Shown: piece by piece, positions 15,617-44,299 of the stretch
Position numbering within the stretch: position 1 is the stretch's first letter
Layout of the letters: each line of letters opens with the position of its first letter
The notes under the pieces: generated by a model
What the model saw: the letters and a program-made list of their open reading frames with translations, nothing else
Databases searched by the model: none
What the model was told of the DNA's origin: nothing
Translations under genes and position numbers: made by a program
Origin: an uncultured Bacilli bacterium
Lineage (GTDB): Bacteria; Bacillota_I; Bacilli_A; RF39; UBA660
Assembly: GCA_947589275.1 (NCBI GenBank)
Contig: CANQAQ010000003.1
Location: forward strand, 1 to 44,305
Direction: 5' to 3'
Length of the DNA stretch: 44,305 nucleotides

Positions 15617-17929
15617 ATGAAGACTAGATTACCAGTTGTTGTTTTAAGAAATATGATTTTGCTTCCACTAGGGCAGCTTAAACTTGAAATTAGTAATGAT
15701 AATGACAAAAAGATAATTACTAATTCTTCTAGTGAATATGATAATTATGTTTTATTAGTTTCACCAGAATTAGTTACAGAAGAAAACTTAAAGATTGAAG
15801 ATTTACCAAATACTGGAACAATTGGTAAAATAACAAGTAGTTTTGAACTTCCAAATGGAAATGTTAGAATAAGTATAGATGGTATAAATAGAGCTAATAT
15901 ATTTGAATATATTGATGAAGATAAAAATAATTTAAGTGCAATTATTGGTCCTGTTATGGTAGTAAAAAATGATCCTATTACTGAAGAAGCTATACTTAGA
16001 AAATTAAAAAGAGAATTTATATCTTATGTTTCAATTATGCCAAATATATCAGATAGTATAATTAGTAAAATATCTGATGAAGAATCTTTAGAAAAATTAA
16101 CTGATATAATAATTAATATATTACCTATTAGATTTGAATTAAAATTTAAATATTTAATAGAATTTGATGCAAGTAAAAGAGCAAATAAACTAATTGAGGA
16201 TATAGAAAAAGAAAAAAATATAAATTTTGTTGAAAGAGTTATTGAAGAAAAATTAAAAAATGATCTTGATAAAACAAATAAAGATTATATATTAAAAGAA
16301 AAAATAAAAATTATTAGACAAGAACTTGGTGAAGATACATCAAAGGAAGATGAAATAGAAGAATTACAAAATAAAATATCAAATTTAAAATGTAAAGATA
16401 ATATAAAAGAAAAATTATATAAAGAAGTAAAAAAATATGAATATATTCCCCAAACATCACCTGAAATATCTATAGTAAAAAATTATATAGATACTATGTT
16501 ATCTTTACCATACGAAATTTATACAAAAGATAATACTAATCTTAATTCAATAGAGAAAATATTAAATTCAACACACTATGGTTTAGAAAAAGTAAAATTA
16601 CGTATATTAGAATATATATGTGTAAAACAACTTACTAATTCAAATAATAGTCCAATAATATGTTTAGTAGGTCCACCTGGTGTAGGTAAAACTTCACTTG
16701 CATATTCAATATCAAAAGCTTTAAAAAGAAACTTTATTAAAACATCAGTAGGTGGAGTATCAGATGAAGCAGAAATAATAGGACATAGAAGAACATATAT
16801 TGGTTCACAAGAAGGAAGAATAATTAATGGAATAAAAAAAGCTAAATCAAGTAATCCTGTATTTTTAATAGATGAAATAGATAAAATGACAAAAGATATT
16901 AAAGGAGATCCAGCAAGTGCACTTTTAGAAGTTTTAGATCCTAGTCAAAATACAGAATTTTATGATAACTATATTGAAGAAGCTTATGATTTATCAAAAG
17001 TTATGTTTATTTTAACTGCTAATAGTTATCAAGATATTCCATATGCACTTCGTGATAGACTTGAAATAATTGAACTTCCAAGTTACACAACTATAGAAAA
17101 AGTAAATATAGTAAAAAATCATATGTTTCAAGTACTTTTAAAAAAACATGGACTTACAAGAAATAATCTTATAATAGATGATGATATGATACGATATATT
17201 ATTCAATTTTATACAATGGAAGCTGGGGTACGTGATTTAGAAAGAAATATATCTAAAATAATGAGAAAAGTTGCTATGGATATAGTTAAAACTAATAAAA
17301 GAAAAAAACATATAATAACTAAAGATAATATTAGAGATTATTTAGGAGTAGAAAAATATATTGATACTAAAAATTATAATAATATTAGTGGAACTGTAAA
17401 TGGATTAGCTTATACTAGTGTTGGTGGAAGAATACTTCCTATAGAGGTTACTTATTATAAAGGTAAAGGAGATATAATATTAACTGGTTCTTTAGGAGAA
17501 GTTATGGTTGAAAGTGCTAAAATTGCATTAGGGTATATAAAGAGTAAATTTAAAGAGTTTAATATCGATGAAAAAAAATTAAGTAATAATGACATACATA
17601 TAAATGCTATTGATGGTGCAATAAAAAAAGATGGGCCATCTGCAGGTGTAGCACTTACTACAGCTATAATAAGTTCATTAACTAATTATTTAGTACCTAA
17701 TGATATAGCTATGACTGGAGAAATTACTTTAACTGGTTCTATTAATCCAATAGGTGGACTTAGAGAAAAATTAGTTGGAGCATTAAATGCATCTATAAAA
17801 AAAGTATTTGTTCCTATTGATAACAAAAGAGATGTAATTGAAATAGAAGATGAAATAAAAAATAATTTAGATATTATATATGTAAGTAATTATATAGAAA
17901 TTTATAATAATATATTCTGTAATAAATAA
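15617..17929 (+). CDS. lon: Lon protease
   Basis: GPPGVGKTS, GHRRTYIG, LIDEIDK, DGPSAG catalytic Ser, IGGLREK. Confidence 0.97.
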   Translation: MKTRLPVVVLRNMILLPLGQLKLEISNDNDKKIITNSSSEYDNYVLLVSPELVTEENLKIEDLPNTGTIGKITSSFELPNGNVRISIDGINRANIFEYIDEDKNNLSAIIGPVMVVKNDPITEEAILRKLKREFISYVSIMPNISDSIISKISDEESLEKLTDIIINILPIRFELKFKYLIEFDASKRANKLIEDIEKEKNINFVERVIEEKLKNDLDKTNKDYILKEKIKIIRQELGEDTSKEDEIEELQNKISNLKCKDNIKEKLYKEVKKYEYIPQTSPEISIVKNYIDTMLSLPYEIYTKDNTNLNSIEKILNSTHYGLEKVKLRILEYICVKQLTNSNNSPIICLVGPPGVGKTSLAYSISKALKRNFIKTSVGGVSDEAEIIGHRRTYIGSQEGRIINGIKKAKSSNPVFLIDEIDKMTKDIKGDPASALLEVLDPSQNTEFYDNYIEEAYDLSKVMFILTANSYQDIPYALRDRLEIIELPSYTTIEKVNIVKNHMFQVLLKKHGLTRNNLIIDDDMIRYIIQFYTMEAGVRDLERNISKIMRKVAMDIVKTNKRKKHIITKDNIRDYLGVEKYIDTKNYNNISGTVNGLAYTSVGGRILPIEVTYYKGKGDIILTGSLGEVMVESAKIALGYIKSKFKEFNIDEKKLSNNDIHINAIDGAIKKDGPSAGVALTTAIISSLTNYLVPNDIAMTGEITLTGSINPIGGLREKLVGALNASIKKVFVPIDNKRDVIEIEDEIKNNLDIIYVSNYIEIYNNIFCNK

Positions 17930-17969
17930 ATATTAAAAAGAGTTCTAAAATAGAACTCTTTTTAATATT
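17929..17969. terminator. 19-bp perfect inverted repeat, lon terminator
   Basis: aatattaaaaagagttcta-aaa-tagaactctttttaatatt. Confidence 0.8.
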
Positions 17970-17994
17970 ATTAATTAGAAGTGAGGGATCAAAT

Positions 17995-18735
17995 ATGAAA
18001 AAGATTATACCATTTACAAGTGATATAAAATTTAATACTAAAATTTATGAAATAACTAGTATATCATTAGAGCATAATCTAAAAATTGAAGAAAATAATA
18101 TAGTTTCAGGTGAATTTATAATTAGTGGTGATTATAAAATGAATGATGCGTCCATAAATACTGAACCATTTATTCAAGGAATACCATTTGATATAACATT
18201 AGATACTAAATATGATATGGATAGAATAAAAATAGATATAGATGATTTTAGATTTGAAATTATAAATGAAGAAATATTAAAAGTAAATATAGATGTTTTA
18301 ATAGAAGGTGTTGAACTTGTAGAATTAAATAATGATGAGGAAGAAAAAGAAGATATAAAACCAGATCTTATTATTGAACCTAGGAAACTAGATATTACTG
18401 ATGAATATATTGAAGATAAAATGGAGGATAATATGGATAATATATCAATTGAAGATTTATTTAAACAAACTGATAGTGAAGTTAAAGAGGTAACTTCTTA
18501 TACAGATGAAAAAGTAAATAATACAACTATGGATTCAATATTTAATAATTTTTCTTCAGAAGATGAAAAATATGTTACATACTATGTACATATTGTACGA
18601 GAAAATGATAATATTGAGTCAATTTCTTCAAAATATGGTGTTAGTGTTGAAGAATTAAAAGAATATAATAATATAGAACAAATTACCCTTGGAAGTAAAA
18701 TAATAGTTCCATATACACAAAGTGAAATTCTATAA
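17995..18735 (+). CDS. SpoVID-like spore coat morphogenetic protein with C-terminal LysM
   Basis: N-terminal ITSISLE..GEFIISGDY..IPFDITL..IDDFRFEI, acidic linker, LysM (VHIVRENDNIESISSKYGVSVEELKEYN); precedes a ysxE-like gene. Confidence 0.75.
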   Translation: MKKIIPFTSDIKFNTKIYEITSISLEHNLKIEENNIVSGEFIISGDYKMNDASINTEPFIQGIPFDITLDTKYDMDRIKIDIDDFRFEIINEEILKVNIDVLIEGVELVELNNDEEEKEDIKPDLIIEPRKLDITDEYIEDKMEDNMDNISIEDLFKQTDSEVKEVTSYTDEKVNNTTMDSIFNNFSSEDEKYVTYYVHIVRENDNIESISSKYGVSVEELKEYNNIEQITLGSKIIVPYTQSEIL

Positions 18736-19621
18736 GAATATACTTAATAAAAATGACCTAAAGGTTAATAAATATACTATAAAAGGCAAAAGCACTATAG
18801 TAGATACTCCTTTAGGTCAATTTGTTTTAAAAAAAAATGAGGGTAATAATATATATAGATATTTAATATCAAGAAATTTTGATTATTTTCCTAAAATAGT
18901 TGATATAGATGATGATGCAGTTATGTTTGAATATTTAGATGATATATCATACGATGATAGTCAAAAAGCATTTGATATTATTCATTTAATTGCATTGCTT
19001 CATAGTAAAACTACTTATTATAAAGAAGTAGATGCTGATGAATATAAAATAATATATGAGGATTTATCAAAAAAAATTGAATATTTAAATAATTACTATT
19101 TAGATATTATAAATATAATTGAATCTAAAATATATATGAGTCCATCAGAATATTTAATCGCAAGAAATATATCTAAAATATTTGAATGTATAAACTATTG
19201 TAAATATTCTATTGATCAGTGGTATGATTTAGTAAAAGATAAAAAAAGAAAAAGAGTTGTAACTCTCCATAATAATTTAGATATAAATAATTTAATAAAA
19301 AATAAAAATTCATATTTAATTTCATGGGAAAAAAGTAAAATTGATCTTCCTATATATGATTTTGTAAATTTTTATAATAAATATTCTTTAGATTTTGATT
19401 TTGATGATTTATTAATAGAATATGAAAGAATATTTAAACTTCTTCCTGAAGAAAAAACATTATTATTTATATTAATTTCAATGCCTGAAAAAATAGATTT
19501 TAATTTTAATGAATATGAAATGGTTAAAATAGTTAGAAAATTTCTAGATAAAATATATAAAACAGAATATTTATTAAAAGCAAATAGAAAAGATGAAGAA
19601 ACAAATCAAGAAGCTATCTAA
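18722..19621 (+). CDS. YsxE/CotS-like spore coat protein (kinase-like fold)
   Basis: VDTPLGQFVLKK, LLHSKT, VTLHNNL, ISWEKS..DLPIYD; operon with the spoVID-like gene. Confidence 0.7.
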   Translation: MKFYKNILNKNDLKVNKYTIKGKSTIVDTPLGQFVLKKNEGNNIYRYLISRNFDYFPKIVDIDDDAVMFEYLDDISYDDSQKAFDIIHLIALLHSKTTYYKEVDADEYKIIYEDLSKKIEYLNNYYLDIINIIESKIYMSPSEYLIARNISKIFECINYCKYSIDQWYDLVKDKKRKRVVTLHNNLDINNLIKNKNSYLISWEKSKIDLPIYDFVNFYNKYSLDFDFDDLLIEYERIFKLLPEEKTLLFILISMPEKIDFNFNEYEMVKIVRKFLDKIYKTEYLLKANRKDEETNQEAI

Positions 19622-19811
19622 ATTTGAAAAAACAAAATGAACTTAAACATAAAAGACAAAATATTATTAATAAAATAACTGCATTTATAGGTGTTGTAAT
19701 AAATAAAAGTAAAATAATTTGATAAGTAAGTATTATTAAGAATGATATAAAAAACAAAAATGCAATAAGTCTTTTAGTACTCAAAAGTAAATATTGAAAA
19801 AAATTCATCAT
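19614..19811 (-). CDS. Small membrane protein, YszA-like
   Basis: SD AGGTGA before ATG 19811; two hydrophobic segments; opposite strand next to ysxE-like gene, as I recall for B. subtilis yszA. Confidence 0.55.
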   Translation of the reverse strand: MMNFFQYLLLSTKRLIAFLFFISFLIILTYQIILLLFITTPINAVILLIIFCLLCLSSFCFFKFR

Positions 19812-19925
19812 ATTTATCACCTATAATATAATATGTAAATGTAAAAAAAATGTAAGTGCATTATTATATACTTTATATAAAATTAAATAAATGGTATTAT
19901 AATATTAGTATTAGGAGTAAATAAT

Positions 19926-23990: not shown

Positions 23991-25268
23991 ATGAAAAAAG
24001 GGTTATATATTAAATTATTATTATTTATTTTTATGATTATTATATTTCCAAAAAATGCATATGCACTTAATTTTAAAGTTGAAAGATCAGTAGATTCTAT
24101 TAAACCAGGACAGGAAGTAACTGTATATATAAAAATAACAGATACAAGTTCAATAGTTGCAGATTCATTAAATAAATATACTGTATCACTTTCATATGAT
24201 TCATCAAAACTTGAATATAAGAGTGGAAATAGTAATGTTTCAAATGTTCAAGCAGGTAATCCTGTTACAATAACTGCAAATAAACCAATAAGTGGTGATG
24301 AGACACTTGCTACTTTGATATTTGGTGTAAAAAGTGGTGCTAAAGCTGGTAGTACAAATTTAACTGTAACAAATTCAGATCTTAATACTTTAAGTGGTAA
24401 TAATAAGATTACTGCAACTAATACAAGTTCTATGATAACTATAAATTCATTAAGTTCTGATGCAACACTTAGTTCACTTAAGATACCTAATGCAACATTA
24501 TCTCCAAAATTTGATAAAGAAGTTACTGAATATAGTACAGATATAAAAGATATAACTGAAATTACTATAAATGCATCTCCAACAGACTCAAATTCAAAAA
24601 TTATGATATCTGATAACTATAAAAATTTAGTTAAGGGTGAAAATATAATAAAAATTTCAGTAACTGCAGAAGATGGAACAACAACTAAAACATATCAAAT
24701 TAAAGTAAATCTTACTATGACTCCAACTGAGGAAGAAAAACTAAAAGCAAATGCTGATTTAAAGAAACTTGAAATAGATGGTTTTGATATAGATTTTTCT
24801 AAAGAAATCAAAAAATATACATTATCAGTTCCATATGATACAAGAAAAATAAAATTATTAGCAGAATCAGAAAATGAAAATGCTATTGTTACAATGGAAG
24901 GAACTACAGATTTAAAAGTTGGTAAAAACATAATAAAAATTTTAGTAACATCTGAAGATAATGAAAATACTCAAACCTATACAATAACAGTAACAAGAGA
25001 AAAAGAAGAAAAGAAAATAGTTCAAACTTGTCCAGATGAAACTAGTACAAGAGAGTGGATATTATTTTCAGTTTCAATGTTTGTTACATTTACATTAGGA
25101 ATAGTGTTAGGATACTTTGTATGTAAAAAACAAATTTTAAGTAAGATATTTAAAAAGAAGAAAAAAGAAGATCCTGAAGAAATAGATACTTTATCTGATA
25201 CTATAAAACTTGATACTAATAAGGTTAATGATGAAGTAATTAAAGAAAACAAAAATAAATTGGATTAG
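23991..25268 (+). CDS. Surface protein with cohesin-like and two cadherin-like beta-sandwich domains, C-terminal TM
   Basis: Signal peptide; LSYDSSKLEY; two repeats ending VTAEDG/VTSED...TY.I.V; TM followed by a Lys cluster. Confidence 0.8.
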   Translation: MKKGLYIKLLLFIFMIIIFPKNAYALNFKVERSVDSIKPGQEVTVYIKITDTSSIVADSLNKYTVSLSYDSSKLEYKSGNSNVSNVQAGNPVTITANKPISGDETLATLIFGVKSGAKAGSTNLTVTNSDLNTLSGNNKITATNTSSMITINSLSSDATLSSLKIPNATLSPKFDKEVTEYSTDIKDITEITINASPTDSNSKIMISDNYKNLVKGENIIKISVTAEDGTTTKTYQIKVNLTMTPTEEEKLKANADLKKLEIDGFDIDFSKEIKKYTLSVPYDTRKIKLLAESENENAIVTMEGTTDLKVGKNIIKILVTSEDNENTQTYTITVTREKEEKKIVQTCPDETSTREWILFSVSMFVTFTLGIVLGYFVCKKQILSKIFKKKKKEDPEEIDTLSDTIKLDTNKVNDEVIKENKNKLD

Positions 25269-29918: not shown

Positions 29919-31682
29919 ATGAACACTTTAAAAAAAATAATAAAAAGTATTCTTAATACAATATGTAATATATTTTTATTTATAATTTTATTACCACTTA
30001 ATATATTTAAGTATTTTAATTTATTTTTTTACTATTTAATAAAACTTGCATTAAGAGAGTCACCTGAGAAAAAACAAAAAAGATTAGAAAAAGAAAAAGA
30101 AAGAGAAGAAGAAAAAGAAAAAGAAAGAAAAGAAGCAGAAAAATATATTAGGGAAAAGAATAAAGAAGCTAATATCTCTGCATTAAAAGATGCTCAAAGT
30201 GAAAAAAATAAAATTAATGAGCAAGTTAAAGCTCCTAGTCATAAAATGACTAAAGAAGAGATAAGGGAAGAACATAGAATAGCAAAAGAAAAAATAAAAA
30301 GAGAAAAACAAAGGCAAAGAGAAGAAGCAAGAAAAGAAAAAAAGAGTATTTTAAAACAGTTTAAAGAAAGAAACTTTTTTGCACTTAGAAGACAAAGAAA
30401 ATTAGATTCAAAAAGAAAAGTATTAACATTAGATATAAATTCTGATGATTCAAAAAGAAGTAATGAAAAAATTATATTTAGATATGTAGGTAAAAATGAA
30501 GCAGGTAAAATTGAAAGAGGAACATTCCAAGGATATTCAAAACTTGATGTTCATTCATATTTATTATCTGAAGGATATGAAGTATATGAAATAAAAGCAG
30601 TTGCAAAAGCTAACTTATTTAATACAGATTTATCACTTAATAGACCGATTAAGAAATCTTTATTAGTATTTTATATAACTCAATTATCAACATATTTAAA
30701 AGCAGGTATACCACTTGTTGATTCAATAAAAATATTAACAAAGCAAACAAAATCAAAAAGTGTTAAAACAATTTGGAAATCAATAGTATATGAGCTTACG
30801 ATGGGTGCAAGTCTTAGTGAGGCTATGATAAGATGTGGTAATGTATTTCCAAAATTATTAATTAATATGATTAAAACTGCTGAAATGACTGGTGATTTAC
30901 CTGAGGTACTTGATGAACAAGCAGAGTATTATAAAACTACTGAGCAATCAAAAAGAGAAATGATAAATGCAATGTTATATCCACTTGCAATATTTATTTT
31001 TTCCATTGCAATAATTATATTTATATTATTATATGTAATACCACAATTTGTAGAGATATATGAAAGTATTGGTGCAGACCTTCCATGGTTTACTCAACTT
31101 CTAATAAATATTAGTAATTTTGCATCAAAGAATATTATTTGGATGGCTGTTATTGCTATAGTAATAGTAATAATATTCATAATACTATATAAAAATAATT
31201 CATCATTTAAATATGGTGTTGAATACTTATTAATGCATATTCCTGTTATTAAAAATGTTATAATATATAATGAAGTAACAATGTTTTCGAAGACATTTGC
31301 AACACTTATAAATAATAATATTTTTATAACTGATAGTATGGATATACTAAGTAGAATTACAGAAAATGAAATATATAAAATGATAATATATGACGCAGTA
31401 GAAAATTTATCTAGAGGTGAAAATATTTCTACATCATTTTATGATCATTGGGCTTTCCCTGATATAGCATATCAAATGATAGTAACTGGTGAAAAAACAG
31501 GTCAGTTAGGTATAATGATGGATAAAGTGGGGGATTATTATCATGATGAACATTCAAATGCAATAGCAAGAATCAAAGTATTCATTGAACCAGTATTAAT
31601 TATATTTTTAGCAGTTGGTGTTGGTGGAATATTGCTTGCAGTATTATTACCTATGTTTAATATATATAGTCAAGTTATATAA
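29919..31682 (+). CDS. pilC: Type IV pilus/T2SS platform protein PilC/GspF with N-terminal extension
   Basis: FRYVG..AGKIERG, QLSTYLKAGIPL, AEMTGDL, AMLYP, GEKTGQL, IEPVLI, LLPMF. Confidence 0.9.
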   Translation: MNTLKKIIKSILNTICNIFLFIILLPLNIFKYFNLFFYYLIKLALRESPEKKQKRLEKEKEREEEKEKERKEAEKYIREKNKEANISALKDAQSEKNKINEQVKAPSHKMTKEEIREEHRIAKEKIKREKQRQREEARKEKKSILKQFKERNFFALRRQRKLDSKRKVLTLDINSDDSKRSNEKIIFRYVGKNEAGKIERGTFQGYSKLDVHSYLLSEGYEVYEIKAVAKANLFNTDLSLNRPIKKSLLVFYITQLSTYLKAGIPLVDSIKILTKQTKSKSVKTIWKSIVYELTMGASLSEAMIRCGNVFPKLLINMIKTAEMTGDLPEVLDEQAEYYKTTEQSKREMINAMLYPLAIFIFSIAIIIFILLYVIPQFVEIYESIGADLPWFTQLLINISNFASKNIIWMAVIAIVIVIIFIILYKNNSSFKYGVEYLLMHIPVIKNVIIYNEVTMFSKTFATLINNNIFITDSMDILSRITENEIYKMIIYDAVENLSRGENISTSFYDHWAFPDIAYQMIVTGEKTGQLGIMMDKVGDYYHDEHSNAIARIKVFIEPVLIIFLAVGVGGILLAVLLPMFNIYSQVI

Positions 31683-31693
31683 GGAGTTTTATA

Positions 31694-32503
31694 ATGGAAA
31701 CAATATTATATAGTATATTTATATTCATAATAGGAACTTGTTTTGGTTCCTTCTTTAATGTAGTAGGATATCGTTTGCCTAATAATATGTCTATAGCATA
31801 TCCTTCATCACATTGTCCTAATTGTAAACATAAACTTGGAGTTCTTGAACTTATACCAGTTTTATCTTATATATTTCAATTTGGTAAATGTAAACACTGT
31901 AAGGAAAAAATATCAATATTTTACCCCATATTTGAATTATTAACAGGTATATTATTTGTTATATGTTATCTTGTATTTAAAGATACATATCCAGAAATTT
32001 ATAATGTAATATTTGCAATTGTATTTATATCATCTTTAATAATAATTATTATCAGTGATATAAAATATATGATTATACCAGATGAAGTATTAATATTTTT
32101 TAGTATAATACTTCTTCTAATAAAAATGGTTATAATACATAAATTAAATGTAAATTATACATGGATAGATGTAGGTTATGAACTTTTATTTAGTTTATTT
32201 GATGGAATTATAATGTTTATTATTATGTATGGAATTAGATTTTTTGGTAATTTAATATTTAAAAAAGATTCAATGGGTGGTGGAGATATAAAAATGATGG
32301 CATTTATATCACTATTTATTGGATGGGAATTAGGAGTTGTAGTAATATTTTTAGCATCATTTTTAGCTCTTCCATTATCAATAATAAATATGTATAAAAA
32401 TAAAGAACATATATTAGCATTTGGTCCTTATTTAGCGATAGCAACAATGATTTTATTCTTGTGTAAAATAGATATTAATATGGTAATTGAATTTATATCA
32501 TAA
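31694..32503 (+). CDS. pilD: Prepilin peptidase/N-methyltransferase (A24)
   Basis: GSFFNVVGYRLP, SHCPNC..GKCKHC, D..YMIIPD, MGGGDIK, AFGPYL. Confidence 0.93.
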   Translation: METILYSIFIFIIGTCFGSFFNVVGYRLPNNMSIAYPSSHCPNCKHKLGVLELIPVLSYIFQFGKCKHCKEKISIFYPIFELLTGILFVICYLVFKDTYPEIYNVIFAIVFISSLIIIIISDIKYMIIPDEVLIFFSIILLLIKMVIIHKLNVNYTWIDVGYELLFSLFDGIIMFIIMYGIRFFGNLIFKKDSMGGGDIKMMAFISLFIGWELGVVVIFLASFLALPLSIINMYKNKEHILAFGPYLAIATMILFLCKIDINMVIEFIS

Positions 32504-36244: not shown

Positions 36245-38893
36245 ATGAAAAATAAAAAAGGATTTACATTAATAGAATTACTAGCAGTAATAGTAATATT
36301 ATCAATAATAATGATAATAGCAGTACCAAAAATAATAAATATAATAGAAGAAGCAGATAGAAGAGCATATGAAAATAGTGTAAACTTAATGGTAGAAGCA
36401 GCAAGATTAAAATATCAAACAGGAACTATGAAAGGAGAAGATATAAAATTACCATTAACATATATATATGAAGGAAATAAACAAACAAATATAGAAGAAG
36501 TAGGAGAATTAGTATTTAAAGGAGATAAAGCAAATTCAGGAACAATAACAGTAAATCAAGAAGGAAAAATAGTAGTAGAAAACTTAGTAAGTAAAAATAA
36601 AAAATGGTGTGCAGTAAAACAAGCAAATAATGCAGAAGCAAAAGTAGGAAGAGCAAGCGTTTTAGGGTGTTCTATAGATGATAATGATGATAATAATGGT
36701 GATGATGAAGAAGAGATAATAAAAGACAAAGAAGCATGTAGTTTAGAACAAGATAGTAAAAATGAAAATATATATTATGTAGATTCAGTAAGTGATTTAT
36801 ATGAATTATCAAAAGAAGTAAATGAAGGAAATAACTATAGTGGTAAGATAATAAAACTAAGAAATAATATAGATATGAAAGATACAAGTAATAAATGTGG
36901 ACTAGAAAGTTTTGAACCAATAGGAAATAATAGTAAACCATTTAGTGGTACATTTGAAGGATTAGGAAATTCAATAAAGAATTTAGTAATAAATAAGCAA
37001 GGACAAGATGATATTGGATTATTTGGAAATAACTCTGGAACAATAAAAGGATTAAGTTTAGAAAATATAGATATAAAAGGTAAAAGTAGTATTGGTGGAT
37101 TAGTAGGACGAAATAATAATGGAAAAATAAGTGACATTATAATAAATGGAAAAGTAGAAGGAACTGGTGAAAATATTGGTGGACTAGTAGGAGTTCATAG
37201 TGGTACTATAGCAAATATAATAATGAATGTAGATGTAAATAAAGATGTAACGGGAGCAACTAGAGTAAGTGCAGTATTGGGTAATTTAGGAATTGGAACA
37301 CGATCAGTTAATAACGTAATTATAGAAGGTGGAGAAATAAATGGAAGATTAGAATATTATAGTAGTTATTCAGAAAATGTTTTGCATAATGATTCTAAAG
37401 AAAAATATCCTTCTAATCTATATTCAAAAGAAGCAATAGGTGATATAAATACATACGAAACTTATATAGATACATATATAGGTGGGGATGATGATGACTC
37501 AGGATATTACTTTGATTATGATAGCAAGGGAAAATTAGTAATAAAAAGTATAGAAAAAAATCCAATAGAATTTAATTTAAAAGGAAAAGGAACACAAGAT
37601 GATCCATATTTAATAGAAAATTATGAAGACTGGAAAGAAGCAACAACAAAGGTAGACCAAGTAAATATAGTATTTAAGTTAACAAAAGATATAGATTTTA
37701 CAGGTAAGAAATTTTATATGTTAGGAAGTTATCAGAATCAGTTTAATGGACATTTAATTGGAGATGGATATAGTCTTAAGAATGTTAATTTAAATGGTGG
37801 AGATTATCAAGGAATTATTGGATATGTTGGAACTGAAGGTATAGTTGAAGGTATAAATGTAAAATCTTTAAATACAAATAATACTTTTAATTATGTAGGA
37901 GTAATAGGATACAATAAAGGGATTGTTAAAGGTATAAATATATATAATGTATATGTAATAGGTAGAAGTTATATAGGTGGATTGGTTGGCTATAATGAAG
38001 GAAAAATATTAGAAATTACTATAGAAGGAAATATATATGGAGTTGTAAATGAAGAACAATTTATAGGTGGAGCAGTTGGACTAAATAATGGAACAATAAG
38101 AGGAATATTAGCTAATGTAAATGTTACAAGTTCTTATAATACTACATTTGCACGTTCTTCAGGAGGTTTATTTGGTCAAAATGGTAGAGGTACAATATAT
38201 AATTCAGTTATTGAAACTGGTAATGTATTGGCAGAGAATATAGTTATGGGTAGAGGAGCTTCTTCATATGATGTATATTATTGTGAGGGTGTAACAACTA
38301 CAGGTAGTATATTTACTAAATCAATACCTAGTATATATATAAATGATTTAACATATTATGATAGTATGTTAAATGATAAAAATGAGCCATTATTTGAAAG
38401 TAAATATACAGGAGATATGAATGATTCTGGATATTTCTTTGATTATAATAGTGATGGAAAAATATATGTAGTAAAAGCTTATAATATGAATTATGGTGAT
38501 AATAGTATAGATGAAAATTATACAATGACACATATAGAACAAGGAGCATCAGATCAAACACCACCAGTATGTACATTAGATTATGTAGTAGCAGTAAAAA
38601 ATGGAATAAGAGCATCATTTAGCTGCGTAGATGAAAGTGGAGCGCCAACAATAAGGTCACTATTTGATTCAACTACAAGTTTATCAGCAAGTACATATGA
38701 AGATATAGGAACAAATAAAAATGGAGTAGTAAATGGAAATACTAGAAGTATAGTAAGTACATGGACAATAAATGATCCAGTATCAGTGCCAGAAAGAGGA
38801 AAGTGTTATTATTTTAGATATGGAGGTCAAGATACAGCAGGTAATTTTAGTACATATGTAACAAAAAGATGTTATACAGGTTTTAGTAATTAG
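36245..38893 (+). CDS. Large type IV prepilin-fused protein with duplicated GLUG-type beta-helical modules and a C-terminal Ig-like module
   Basis: KKG|FTLIELLAVIVILSII class III signal with E+5; repeated IGGLVG motifs; two modules ending DSGY(Y/F)FDY; DQTPPVC...DTAGN. Confidence 0.85.
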   Translation: MKNKKGFTLIELLAVIVILSIIMIIAVPKIINIIEEADRRAYENSVNLMVEAARLKYQTGTMKGEDIKLPLTYIYEGNKQTNIEEVGELVFKGDKANSGTITVNQEGKIVVENLVSKNKKWCAVKQANNAEAKVGRASVLGCSIDDNDDNNGDDEEEIIKDKEACSLEQDSKNENIYYVDSVSDLYELSKEVNEGNNYSGKIIKLRNNIDMKDTSNKCGLESFEPIGNNSKPFSGTFEGLGNSIKNLVINKQGQDDIGLFGNNSGTIKGLSLENIDIKGKSSIGGLVGRNNNGKISDIIINGKVEGTGENIGGLVGVHSGTIANIIMNVDVNKDVTGATRVSAVLGNLGIGTRSVNNVIIEGGEINGRLEYYSSYSENVLHNDSKEKYPSNLYSKEAIGDINTYETYIDTYIGGDDDDSGYYFDYDSKGKLVIKSIEKNPIEFNLKGKGTQDDPYLIENYEDWKEATTKVDQVNIVFKLTKDIDFTGKKFYMLGSYQNQFNGHLIGDGYSLKNVNLNGGDYQGIIGYVGTEGIVEGINVKSLNTNNTFNYVGVIGYNKGIVKGINIYNVYVIGRSYIGGLVGYNEGKILEITIEGNIYGVVNEEQFIGGAVGLNNGTIRGILANVNVTSSYNTTFARSSGGLFGQNGRGTIYNSVIETGNVLAENIVMGRGASSYDVYYCEGVTTTGSIFTKSIPSIYINDLTYYDSMLNDKNEPLFESKYTGDMNDSGYFFDYNSDGKIYVVKAYNMNYGDNSIDENYTMTHIEQGASDQTPPVCTLDYVVAVKNGIRASFSCVDESGAPTIRSLFDSTTSLSASTYEDIGTNKNGVVNGNTRSIVSTWTINDPVSVPERGKCYYFRYGGQDTAGNFSTYVTKRCYTGFSN

Positions 38894-43370: not shown

Positions 43371-43400
43371 TTGACAAAAATAATAATAAAAATGTATACT
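43371..43400 (+). promoter_or_regulatory. sigmaA promoter of the pilin-leader/fibre gene
   Basis: TTGACA-N18-TATACT. Confidence 0.6.
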
Positions 43401-43426
43401 TAAATAAAAAATAGGATAGTGATAAA

Positions 43427-44203
43427 ATGAATAAAAAAGGATTTGCATCATCAGTAATAATATATACAATATTTGCAATATTTTTAGTAGCAATAAGTAT
43501 AATGTTATTTACAGTAAATAATAGTGTTGCGTTAAACAAAGCATTAAATGAAGGTACATTAAACAATATATCATATGGATCAGATTCAGTAAGTGATTTA
43601 GAAGAAAGAATTGCAGCATTAGAAAGTACTATAGTGGATAAAATATATCCAGTTGGAAGTATATATATAAGTGCTGAAGATGATACAGTCGAAAAAGTAA
43701 AAGAAAGATTTGGAGGAGAATGGGAAGCATATTCAAAAGGTACAACACTTGTAGGAAGTGGAACATATACTGATAGTAATGGTAATGTAGCAACATATAC
43801 TGTAAATGGAAAACAAGAAGGTAGTAACTTGGTAAAATTAACAACAGAAAACTTACCAAGTCATAGTCATAGTATAAGTCATACTCATACATATAGTGGA
43901 ACAACAGCTGGTTCTGGTAGTCATACACATTCATTTTCTAATGGAGGTAATGCTATTGTAGTAGGATCTAATGTTAATCATACTACTTATGCTGATGGAT
44001 TTGCATCATTTACAAATGGTGGCTGGTGGAATCAGACTAACAAAGCATCTTCTGCTATAGCTTCTGTTGCTAATCATACACATACGTATAGCGGAACAAC
44101 AAAACAAGCAAGCACTACAACAAGTGGACTTACAGGGTCAGGGACAGCATTTAATGCACATGATCCATATATAACAGTTTATATGTATAAAAGGGTAAAA
44201 TAA
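43427..44203 (+). CDS. Prepilin-like leader fused to a phage baseplate gp10-C/tail-fibre-like domain
   Basis: MNKKG|F plus hydrophobic helix; IYPVGSIYIS..FGGEWE..LVG..LTTENLPSHSH..PYITVYMYKR; four HxH doublets. Confidence 0.8.
   Translation: MNKKGFASSVIIYTIFAIFLVAISIMLFTVNNSVALNKALNEGTLNNISYGSDSVSDLEERIAALESTIVDKIYPVGSIYISAEDDTVEKVKERFGGEWEAYSKGTTLVGSGTYTDSNGNVATYTVNGKQEGSNLVKLTTENLPSHSHSISHTHTYSGTTAGSGSHTHSFSNGGNAIVVGSNVNHTTYADGFASFTNGGWWNQTNKASSAIASVANHTHTYSGTTKQASTTTSGLTGSGTAFNAHDPYITVYMYKRVK
43880..44101 (+). repeat. Intragenic 27-nt direct repeat (HTHTYSGTT x2)
   Basis: 43880-43906 catactcatacatatagtggaacaaca versus 44075-44101 catacacatacgtatagcggaacaaca (24/27 identical). Confidence 0.85.
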
Positions 44204-44299
44204 TACCTTTTTTATTTACAAATAAAATGTAAAATCCTTGTTTTAAAAGGATTTTTTATGTTATAATACAAAATAGTGGATAGTAGAGGAGAAGTAGTT

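Follow-up and report, generated by a model that had tools for sequence, protein, structure and literature searches.

A reading frame at 43427..44203 of the window (the whole 44,305-nt stretch of DNA analyzed here, in which every feature described lies on the forward strand) joins what looks like a prepilin leader to what looks like part of a phage tail. What kind of protein is this: a pilus-borne adhesin, as the original prediction had it, an anchored surface protein, or a piece of a prophage? The ORF starts with ATG and, with the stop codon included in its coordinates, encodes 258 aa. The N-terminus reads MNKKG|FASSV, in which Val takes the place of Glu at +5, and residues 6–30 form a run of 25 uncharged residues, just as claimed. 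The other motifs named in that claim are also present: DLEERIAALE at residues 57–66, IYPVGSIYIS at 73–82, FGGEWE at 95–100, LTTENLPSHSH at 138–148, PYITVYMYKR at 247–256, and exactly four HxH motifs, at 146, 152, 166 and 217.

The head, residues 69–257 (43631..44197), is the easier half to place. Pfam Gp10_C (PF21939) matched it over the whole model, positions 1–139 of 139, with an E-value of 2.4e-15; it scored 58.1 bits, where the cut-off is 27. PHROG tail proteins matched as well, down to E 2.9e-17, and a family profile compared with PDB sequences identified the C-domain of T4 gp10 (2fkk) with E 8.8e-18. When the AF2 model was submitted to Foldseek, the top four matches were all gp10 chains (probability 1.00). 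VIA-align superposed the model on 2fkk with Z 7.8 and an rmsd of 4.8 Å over 81 residues; the match to gp12 (1ocy) was weak (Z 4.0, rmsd 3.9 Å, 74 residues). Thus the assignment to the gp10/gp12 type, originally made by eye, is borne out by profile and fold. The accompanying comparison to the gp37 ‘needle’ found no support: neither the PDB-sequence profile search nor Foldseek gave gp37, and the likeness of the HxH motifs to those of gp12 and gp37 is one of motif only. The Collar model (PF07484) gave no match on the protein at E ≤ 1. The most variable stretch of the protein is residues 171–210 (43937..44056), with column conservation of 0.21–0.38 and pLDDT below 50 at residues 181–185 and 191–195. 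Gp10 aligns only to family-profile positions 66–148 and 213–244, and residues 171–210 have no counterpart in it. We propose that this stretch is a distal, ligand-facing insert.

Might the gene, then, simply belong to a phage? A prophage remnant or cargo, with a tail-fibre or baseplate gene merely looking cellular, would account for the Gp10_C and PHROG tail matches, and 38 phage records do hold a relative. Yet no phage hit comes closer than 32.7% identity (over 77% of the query), whereas cellular relatives number in the hundreds at 40–70% identity, and cellular export signals are present in most close relatives. Virion fibres lack a membrane segment such as the one at the N-terminus here, and the head family occurs in 3–16 dispersed copies per genome. 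The setting argues against a prophage too. The 20 window ORFs scanned with Pfam were housekeeping, pilus or unassigned, which agrees with the claim that the gene has no phage neighbors. Neighbors in the window and in homolog loci include ValRS, AlaRS, Lon and primase and, as judged by eye, RecA-like and EF-P-like proteins; the homolog loci are likewise housekeeping, with no prophage context found, as predicted. We consider the prophage reading close to refuted and would be very surprised if it were true. By the same comparison of identities, the notion of a ‘domesticated phage module’ is unsupported as a recent event.

The gp10 likeness raises the possibility of a trimer. Three copies of residues 52–258, modelled together, gave an ipSAE of 0.82, whereas the best of three controls gave 0.00; the result signifies likeness rather than proof of trimerization since the gp10 trimer has already been solved and may shape the result. 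Among solved proteins, 20 of 30 that are pairs of one chain attain that ipSAE mark, as does 1 of 23 single-chain proteins. Contact agreement in the trimer runs was at least 85%, and partner pLDDT was at least 83. The AlphaFold check called for by the original prediction therefore came out in its favor, and the head is predicted to be a homotrimer module of the gp10/gp12 type. A short coiled-coil stalk at residues 55–73 (43589..43645), suggested by an AF2 helix and by alignment, contributes predicted trimer contacts at residues 54–55, 58, 61–62, 65, 69 and 72–73. All eight histidines of the HxH motifs fall within the predicted interface: those at 146–148 and 152–154, within LPSHSHSISHTH (43862..43888), at 166–168 (43922..43930) and at 217–219 (44075..44083), the last also picked out by alignment. 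All 20 full-length homologs of alignment A1 retain H146 and H148. In T4 gp12 and gp37, HxH motifs on the three-fold axis coordinate Zn or Fe. The motifs at the predicted interface here perhaps hold metal ions.

The N-terminus is the harder half. In the AF2 model, a helix spans residues 5–48 (pLDDT 92–97 at residues 11–40), a second helix spans 55–73, and Gp10_C follows; the globular alpha-beta pilin domain is absent. The N_methyl models PF07963 and TIGR02532 gave no match on the protein at E ≤ 1, and none on any of three paralogs in a genome search. The ComGG and GspK models were equally silent on the protein at E ≤ 1. Such facts invite a plainer explanation, namely a membrane-anchored trimeric surface fibre held by an uncleaved signal anchor in type II orientation, with no role for pilus machinery. 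The lack of Glu5 and of an N_methyl match would fit this explanation, and a three-helix membrane stalk suits a homotrimer. Moreover, when the 150 closest representatives of the head family are sorted by N-terminus, 71 show an ordinary signal or anchor, so the head can be displayed without a pilus.

Conservation, however, points the other way. The leader MNKKG (residues 1–5; 43427..43441), with a proposed prepilin-peptidase cut after Gly5, is followed by a hydrophobic, alpha1N-like segment (residues 6–30; 43442..43516), and only two blocks of the protein are better conserved than residues 1–10 (0.74). Of the 120 best homologs, 112 satisfied a regular expression for K/N-G-[FY]-A together with a hydrophobic stretch that lacks Glu5. 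Every sequence of alignment A1 has Gly5 and Ala7, Gly5 is the sole invariant column among 19 N-termini that are 24–55% identical (alignment A3), and it is again invariant in alignment A5; the G|F junction recurs in all 20 sequences of a further set of N-termini. Hence the prediction of a conserved G|F in homologs held, with Gly5 present in 20/20, 19/19 and 20/20 sequences. When compared by hhalign with 13 Glu5 pilin N-termini, the leader and G|F fell in register over 22 columns (probability 93.3%, E 2.6e-7). A simple anchor leaves unexplained both this in-register match and an invariant Gly, with Phe/Tyr and Ala after it, 4–9 residues from the start, at 24–55% identity. In addition, the stalk from membrane to head would be only ∼40 residues, which seems short for crossing a wall, and homologues of YceG, FtsW and VanY in the window suggest that the cell has peptidoglycan. 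From its sequence, we judge that the N-terminus is not a chance signal anchor.

Canonical Glu5 pilins have also been joined to Gp10_C, in 12 of the 150 closest cluster representatives; these are independent fusions, and two of the proteins (P0089 and P0100) match both PF07963 and PF21939. Counts of this kind depend on a crude regular-expression classifier of N-termini: it labelled 38 of the 150 representatives ‘non-Glu5’, and inspection by eye suggests that 5 of these, all with Ile at +1, are false calls, which leaves ∼33.

To follow the N-terminal module (N-module) beyond this head family, we searched genomes of the order with alignment A3. The N-module was found in 285 of 301 sampled genomes and 123 of 127 genera, mostly as one copy each, and its profile gave no match on the 10 canonical pilins of the source genome. 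Ten relatives were scanned for other heads. Six carry an ALK/LTK glycine-rich domain and one each a Gly_rich_2 domain, an RCC1 propeller, and an Ig-like plus FGE-sulfatase-like combination, while one has no domain; F5/8-C and ricin lectin domains also occur in some of the ten. The N-module is an order-wide carrier for different binding heads. A database search with residues 1–58, tried as a survey of fusions, was set aside: it returned the query and three close relatives only, its word index being too coarse.

Where N-module genes lie bears directly on the choice between pilin and anchor. In 8 of 40 loci inspected, which were picked by ORF length and not at random, the N-module gene lies within 18 nt of Glu5 minor-pilin genes or overlaps them (L091, L098, L107 and L115–L119), and in three of these tight operons (L098, L115 and L116) it sits between two Glu5 minor pilins. 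Overlapping reading frames with minor pilins are not expected of a plain anchor. Yet the other 32 loci are solitary among housekeeping genes and adjoin no pilin gene, which counts against the pilin reading and in favor of an anchor. Two small proteins from the operons were examined. The minimal N-module protein of L117 (132 aa; 10-row alignment) was modelled with pLDDT 76 as a 45-residue helix and a small beta domain; the model gave no recognisable pilin fold, the best Foldseek match having E 0.26 and a wide VIA search matching the helix only, with Z ≤ 5.8. For the 163-aa protein of L098, only four homologs were found, all close. Taking both sides together, we hold the anchored fibre to be unlikely, although it is the strongest of the competing explanations.

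Is there machinery to process and assemble such a pilin? The window encodes a PilC/GspF-type platform protein (29919..31682; two T2SSF domains and a charged N-terminal extension of ∼180 aa), presumably part of the machinery, and just downstream the prepilin peptidase PilD (31694..32503; A24_N_bact plus Peptidase_A24), the presumed processing enzyme. It also encodes an 882-aa canonical type IV pilin, MKNKKGFTLIELLAVIVI, with Glu5 present (36245..38893). The claim that PilC and PilD lie in the window is thus correct, and the ATPase and pilins were found elsewhere in the genome: a single strong T2SSE ATPase (PilB-like) lies outside the window, and 10 N_methyl matches over the cut-off represent canonical pilins in this 0.9-Mb (904 kb) genome. 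On contig C26, two minor pilins of the type that flank N-modules stand side by side, adjoining the ATPase gene. The target itself belongs to no pilus operon: the gene before it encodes a DHH/DHHA2-CBS protein, and the genes for the 882-aa pilin and for PilD are 4.5 kb and 11 kb away, respectively. A canonical pilin gene lies directly upstream of paralog C7 and of homolog L006. We considered whether canonical pilins are enriched near family genes and rejected the idea, since the 11 non-family Glu5 pilins in 80 loci (829 kb) approximate the 10 per 904 kb of the genome.

PilD co-occurs with the N-module across the order, its N-domain being present in 289 of 301 genomes, but co-occurrence does not discriminate because both are near-universal. 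Two genomes have an N-module and no peptidase by either model (G023, 95% complete; G269, 91% complete). In genus g3, the A24 N-domain was found in 0 of 8 genomes and the catalytic domain in 3 of 3 genomes tested.

Even with PilD at work, a long pilus need not follow. The protein could be processed and remain a membrane stub, cap a short pseudopilus as in type II secretion, or be released as a soluble trimer. The conserved class III-like motif is as expected for any of these outcomes, as are the best scores of PilC against GspF models, the presence of one T2SSE ATPase only, with no second, retraction-type one found, and the lack of the pilin head through which subunits normally pack into a filament. 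But 10 canonical pilins are retained in the genome, and several, at 513–883 aa, are large and modular-looking, which argues for real surface filaments, and Glu5-less pilins of the GspK type are priming or tip subunits of filaments. The results fit stub and pilus alike; we give this explanation a still lower chance than the anchored fibre.

The explanation that we favor, with a confidence slightly above even, is that of a PilD-processed, Glu5-less minor pilin of the tip type, reduced to its helix and bearing a homotrimeric, phage-fibre-like adhesin head. PilD, encoded 11 kb upstream, would remove the leader MNKKG. Residues 6 to ∼48 would then serve as the pilin alpha1 and dock into a type IV or Com-like filament, presumably built by the single PilB-like ATPase, PilC and the canonical pilins. 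The helix would lead, through the short coiled coil, straight to the T4 gp10/gp12-type head with no globular pilin head between, and the heads would intertwine as a homotrimer with four HxH motifs per chain at the interface, perhaps with bound metal ions. Given a homotrimeric head, three copies might form a three-fold cap at the filament tip, much as has been suggested for CofB. The variable distal insert (∼171–210) could bind a surface ligand on other cells, glycans or host material. Against this scheme stands the need of a homotrimer for three alpha1 helices at one filament end. We infer cleavage, tip incorporation, metal binding and adhesion; most likely, the protein sticks the cell to something.

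How is the gene expressed, and how many like it are there? A sigma-70-like promoter, TTGACA – 18-nt A/T-rich spacer – TATACT (43371..43400), matches 11 of 12 consensus positions, and an AGGA motif resembling a ribosome-binding site (43413..43416) lies 10 nt before the ATG. The promoter scan as a whole found 7 sites versus 7.6 ± 2.5 in shuffles, a count not above chance, but the target site gains support from the same sequence upstream of paralogs: in C7, the stretch from –35 to the start is the same, and in C18 the stretch from –10 to the start is the same, with the contig ending 36 nt upstream of the start. Downstream, the terminator scan around the gene found none. A weak A/U-rich, 9-bp hairpin followed by a U run (44231..44255; –10.4 kcal/mol, z –1.55, equalled by 12 of 200 shuffled sequences) is a possible terminator. 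Of the two signals originally claimed for the gene, then, its own promoter is supported and its own terminator is at best weakly so.

The target is one of at least 3–4 paralogs in the genome, and the paralogs carry ∼40–50 extra residues at the position of the target stalk (residues 55–73). In C7 and C24, the promoter spacer contains a G10 tract (C7:1128–1137 and C24:53–62), a further G tract lies at C10:4235–4244, and poly-G tracts are found in the promoters of many family copies. These tracts suggest phase variation of the family. Contigs of run X3 show tract-length variants of +1, –1 and –2, which may stem from paralogous promoters; a contig-based comparison cannot show tract variation within a population. 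In X4 and X5, some of the stretch had no coverage. All sequencing-run matches were contigs, with no RNA data set listed among them. The original prediction was silent on the paralogs, on the order-wide N-module carrier and on the missing globular pilin domain.

These observations can be drawn into a wider reading, which we offer tentatively and rate as clearly less probable than the favored explanation of the protein itself. The Glu5-less, headless helix would be an order-wide socket for exchangeable pilus tips; within the genus, it would have multiplied with gp10/gp12-like trimers, some of them switched by poly-G tracts. If so, glycine-rich, lectin, RCC1 or phage-fibre heads would be tips for this socket, the set of three-fold symmetric pilus tips shown by a population would keep changing, and phage-style receptor-binding proteins would let the cell choose its attachment target. 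The sampled order comprises uncultured gut Bacilli with genomes of 0.6–1.6 Mb. Such tiny-genome bacteria probably depend on other cells, and pilus ligands would therefore bear directly on their lifestyle. A head family with poly-G promoters would also stand as a clear example of surface proteins under phase variation in this group. Pilin censuses miss N-module proteins, as the carrier escapes the standard N_methyl models.

Several known systems resemble parts of this protein. The head is closest to the C-domain of T4 gp10 (PF21939; 2FKK; relatives gp11 and the gp12 receptor-binding domain), which it matches in sequence, in fold and in its predicted homotrimer, with the common frame YP[VI]G.IY ... 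LP ... PY[IV]TVY..R. In T4, however, the domain sits on a 602-aa virion baseplate protein rather than a 258-aa cellular protein of membrane or pilin type. Where gp10 has LPAT the target family has LPSHxH, and the family has an extra variable insert of ∼60–90 residues with further HxH motifs.

The N-module is nearer to GspK and ComGG. Pilins of this kind are known exceptions in lacking Glu5 and are tip pilins. Like them, the N-module has a class III-like leader without Glu5 and occurs in small minor-pilin sets, whereas the C-terminal parts are unrelated; ComGG is a member of a four-pilin tip complex (PMC12153270). CofB and TcpB offer a parallel for the whole, as minor pilins with a trimerizing C-terminal part and a proposed tip placement. 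They are type IVb minor pilins of Gram-negative bacteria, with a full pilin domain, a beta-repeat and a beta-sandwich unrelated to phage gp10. For CofB, the trimer is predicted to lie at the pilus tip (PMC8179133).

Modular pilins as such are already known. In S. sanguinis PilB (vWA) and PilC (lectin), a grafted module is thought to be tip-exposed (Raynaud et al. 2021, PMC8179133), and the target shares with these proteins a class III signal and alpha1 carrying a grafted binding module. The S. sanguinis proteins are monomers that retain Glu5, the IPR012902 motif and a small globular module; the target lacks all three features and is a predicted trimer. The InterPro census of that paper would not count the target, on which the motif model is silent, although the Gp10_C architecture may occur among the canonical pilins of its Dataset S1. 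Literature searches on RF39 phase variation and on homopolymeric tracts in gut MAGs returned nothing on the target family, and those on tail collar plus pilin, microcystin-dependent protein and Gp10_C/PF21939 returned nothing similar except one case (PMC9881135). There, a shufflon PilV–phage tail collar fusion lies beside pilus genes, and the authors consider the phage tail domain repurposed (Milman et al. 2023, PMC9881135). Both that fusion and the target unite a pilus tip-type protein with a receptor-binding-type domain of phage tails. PilV-collar is conjugative, type IVb, built on Pfam Collar (PF07484) and varied by DNA inversion (PMC9881135); the target carries Gp10_C, with variation by paralogs and, as their promoters suggest, poly-G tracts. 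As far as these searches reach, three features seen here appear to be undescribed: a Glu5-less carrier reduced to alpha1, a predicted homotrimeric phage-fibre head upon it, and the swapping of heads on one carrier across an entire order.

The target gene (43427-44203, plus strand) encodes 258 residues, as read from the window sequence, and its motifs were found as originally described. The N-terminus, MNKKG|FASSV, is followed by 25 uncharged residues; DLEERIAALE spans residues 57-66, IYPVGSIYIS 73-82, LTTENLPSHSH 138-148 and PYITVYMYKR 247-256. Exactly four HxH motifs are present, as first noted, at 146, 152, 166 and 217. We sorted by crude regex the N-termini of the best 120 of 898 homologs with E ≤ 0.001. 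A K/N-G-[FY]-A motif and a hydrophobic stretch, with no Glu5 (the glutamate at +5 of canonical pilins), were seen in 112/120, in agreement with the class III-like signal of the original prediction. Gly5 and Ala7 are invariant across 20 full-length homologs, Gly5 is the sole invariant column among 19 N-termini of 24-55% identity, and conservation of residues 1-10 exceeds that of most of the head. When an N-terminal profile was compared with 13 Glu5 pilin N-termini, the leader and G|F fell in register (93.3%, E 2.6e-7, 22 columns). Judged by these alignments, the N-terminus would act like a class III signal rather than a random anchor. Against a pilin reading, the target has no Glu5, no pilin head and no motif match (the standard N_methyl models did not hit it), and the same head also occurs on plain anchors. 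An uncleaved membrane anchor, which we consider rather unlikely, would fit these features and fit the conserved leader less well.

Pilus machinery is encoded in the window. Pfam identified PilC (29919-31682), the prepilin peptidase PilD (31694-32503) and a canonical pilin of 882 aa (36245-38893), and the source genome has 10 N_methyl matches above cut-off. The PilD N-domain was detected in 289/301 genomes of the order. In genus g3, which is without it, the catalytic domain was present in 3/3 genomes tested; in two genomes bearing the N-module (the Glu5-less leader plus alpha1 helix), no peptidase was found. PilC has an N-terminal extension of ∼180 residues before its T2SSF repeats (29919-30470), which opens with a hydrophobic stretch and continues as a segment very rich in Lys and Glu. 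The first 60 residues of the 882-aa pilin and of a 513-aa pilin on contig C18 (C18:179-1720) are almost identical, much as the Gp10_C paralogs have their 5' ends in common. In another window protein of 425 aa (23991-25268), likely a surface protein, a cohesin domain and two cadherin-like beta-sandwich domains lie between a signal peptide and a C-terminal membrane segment.

A profile of residues 1-55 found the N-module in 285/301 sampled genomes of the order and 123/127 genera, usually in one copy, with zero matches among the canonical pilins of the source genome. G-F was present in 20/20 N-module proteins and Gp10_C in 0/20 at loci selected for long reading frames; G-F was again invariant at 20 further loci selected for short frames. 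Pfam scanning of 10 relatives (L086-L094, L098) gave an ALK/LTK glycine-rich domain in 6/10. Remaining heads were Gly_rich_2, a 14-repeat RCC1 propeller, F5/8-C plus ricin lectin, and Ig-like, and one protein of 163 aa had no known domain. The N-module thus appears, from its sequence distribution, to be an order-wide carrier of differing heads. At two loci (L095:6171-6344 and L102:6408-6584), the N-module frame is only 57-58 aa long, possibly a truncated or frameshifted gene.

In 8/40 loci, all selected by frame length, at most 18 nt separate the N-module gene from Glu5 minor-pilin genes, or the frames overlap. At L098, L115 and L116 it is flanked by two minor pilins, one of type G[FY]x[FLI][VI]ET and one of type G[LM]SLIE. 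In the source genome, both flanking minor pilins sit side by side on contig C26, the middle gene absent, adjoining the only PilB-like ATPase of the genome. At L091 and L098 a Lon / SpoVID-N-LysM-like / 283-299-aa gene group precedes the minor-pilin operon that contains the N-module (neighbours likened by eye). In the window, a matching Lon group (15617-19621) is separated by 300 nt from the staphylococcal-nuclease homologue that comes next (region 15617-19925), the minor pilins being on C26 instead. The other 32/40 loci are solitary among housekeeping genes, and the target too is solitary, which counts against a pilin. When a minimal N-module relative of 132 aa was modelled in search of a pilin fold, the best Foldseek E was 0.26, and a wide structure search matched the helix alone. 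A processed non-filament stub or a released trimer, an alternative that we regard as doubtful, would suit the missing pilin head; the 10 canonical pilins of the genome argue for real surface filaments.

The gp10-type C-terminal domain was borne out: Pfam Gp10_C matches over its full length at residues 69-257 (E 2.4e-15), and PHROG tail-protein families match with a best E of 2.9e-17. Searched against solved structures, a profile of 112 family members found the T4 gp10 C-terminal domain 2fkk (E 8.8e-18), followed by the phage fibre/structural proteins 7z47 and 8kec. The AF2 monomer had pLDDT 78.0 and pTM 0.47. Its best four Foldseek matches were gp10 chains at probability 1.00 and TM-scores of 0.23-0.28, low values expected of a single chain removed from an intertwined trimer. 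VIA-align gave Z 7.8 with 2fkk (rmsd 4.8 Å, 81 aligned) and Z 4.0 with the gp12 receptor-binding domain 1ocy (rmsd 3.9 Å, 74 aligned); gp10, gp11 and gp12 reportedly share a common fold, as Leiman et al. are said to have described in 2006. Alignment of gp10 to the family profile is restricted to positions 66-148 and 213-244. The stretch between, home to three of the four HxH motifs as well as to the least conserved residues (171-210), is a family-specific insert.

Three copies of residues 52-258 gave an ipSAE of 0.82 (runs 0.82, 0.82 and 0.81; best of three controls 0.00), against a mark reached by 20/30 proteins solved as same-chain pairs and 1/23 solved as single chains. The runs shared at least 85% of contacts, with partner pLDDT of at least 83. 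Along helix 54-73 the contacts return at intervals of three or four residues, as they would in a coiled coil, and all eight HxH histidines fall within the predicted interface. The head is therefore predicted to be a homotrimer. Because the gp10 trimer is already solved, this result shows likeness, not proof. As a homotrimer the protein would have to bring three helices together at a single tip, a further weak point of the pilin reading.

HMMER over 1.84 billion cluster representatives returned 3641 head-family proteins at E ≤ 0.001. Among the best 150 of these, a regex classed 38 as Glu5-less and class III-like (about 33 after 5 doubtful ones were removed), 12 as canonical Glu5 pilins, 71 as signal/anchor and 29 as without signal. 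A one-genome-per-species scan yielded 365 loci. The 80 kept were all MAGs, 16 from one bin, and were titled Bacilli (65), Tenericutes (9), Muribaculaceae (3), Lactobacillales (1), Firmicutes (1) and Erysipelotrichaceae (1). Neighbours of homologs were RuvB/QueA/Tgt-, RecA-, MiaA- and EF-P-like genes (named by eye). The absence of phage neighbours held up, with 0/20 scanned window ORFs phage-like and the target flanked by housekeeping genes. The head family is thus large and cellular. A prophage remnant, to which the tail-protein matches might point, is very improbable in this setting. The best phage relative is only 32.7% identical (E 6e-8), so the proposed domestication of a phage module, taken as a recent capture, is not supported. 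Among the relatives (L010-L085), Gp10_C heads also follow a signal anchor and a conserved SKDVYY.DNS...NVQ.AIDG block, or, behind plain signal peptides, occur as tandem pairs that lie 3' of a larger family protein. Two giant proteins, one at L020 (1668 aa, a Glu5 pilin) and one at L034 (2229 aa), have the head at their C-terminal end.

The source genome (904 kb, 56 contigs, 89.6% complete, 23.6% G+C) has three complete family copies: the target, C7:153-1094 and C18:16493-17629. Their start regions are near-identical up to about codon 43, the likeness beginning just before the -10 hexamer, 37 nt ahead of the start codon; beyond codon 43 they diverge in stalk length and head insert. A fourth copy, truncated by a contig end (C24:1-140, minus strand), retains only the 5' end, with a GTG start, MNKKGFA... 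and a poly-G promoter upstream. Contig C18 ends 36 nt 5' of its copy, and the assembly seems to have been broken by the shared 5' region. In the C18 paralog (378 aa; L003:1048-2184), internal tandem repeats of the head, three copies each of a unit with AHTHSYNDYYANKITGVE and of a GSTGSGY[TS]I unit, contribute extra HxH motifs.

A promoter and terminator of its own had been claimed for the target. The promoter-like TTGACA-18-TATACT (43371-43400) stood, in that it recurs before the C7 and C18 paralogs (the match in C18 starts just ahead of the -10 hexamer, where that contig ends), though the scan count was not above chance (7 sites versus 7.6 expected). The terminator is weak: scanning gave none, and the one candidate is a 9-bp A/U hairpin (z -1.55). 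The target's 18-nt spacer is A/T, without a poly-G tract. G/C runs of at least 8 number four in the source genome, each of 10. G10 lies between TTGACA and TATACT before the C7 paralog (C7:1128-1137), the C24 copy (C24:53-62) and a 146-aa ORF (C10:4235-4244). The fourth G10 (C6:14852-14861) sits inside a membrane ORF, nine codons from its start, and this ORF is out of frame in the assembly. The 80 related loci (829 kb) hold 49 tracts of 8-14 G (in L007-L085). Of 84 family genes with sufficient upstream sequence, 26 had a G tract within 110 nt upstream, versus 4/624 other ORFs, namely three canonical pilins and one with a head-family signal-anchor-like start (by eye). This pattern suggests slipped-strand phase variation. 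The strength of sigma-70 promoters depends on hexamer spacing, and the 20 tracts at which both hexamers fitted the search pattern had spacings of 17 (1), 18 (2), 19 (11) and 20 nt (6); by these rules, most copies should have been assembled in a presumably weak or off state. One run's contigs showed C7 tract variants of +1, -1 and -2, for which paralogous promoters are a possible source. In two studies, rabbit gut metagenome runs have contigs with 84-91% of sampled words of the C7 locus (L001), and the source sample may be among them.

On balance, we lean towards the target being the minor pilin without Glu5 in the set that serves a type IV / Com-like filament, reduced to alpha1 and bearing a predicted trimeric, phage-fibre-like putative adhesin head. 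We found no description of the head family, the carrier or the poly-G promoters in the literature searched; architectures joining canonical pilins to Gp10_C may be in Dataset S1 of PMC8179133. A fusion of PilV to a tail collar is on record (PMC9881135). In its way of working, the target may be likened to two kinds of pilin treated in PMC8179133, the S. sanguinis modular pilins and the trimeric tip pilin CofB. Because two of the tests that define canonical pilins go against it, it is not a plain member and is set apart as a variant of the modular pilins.
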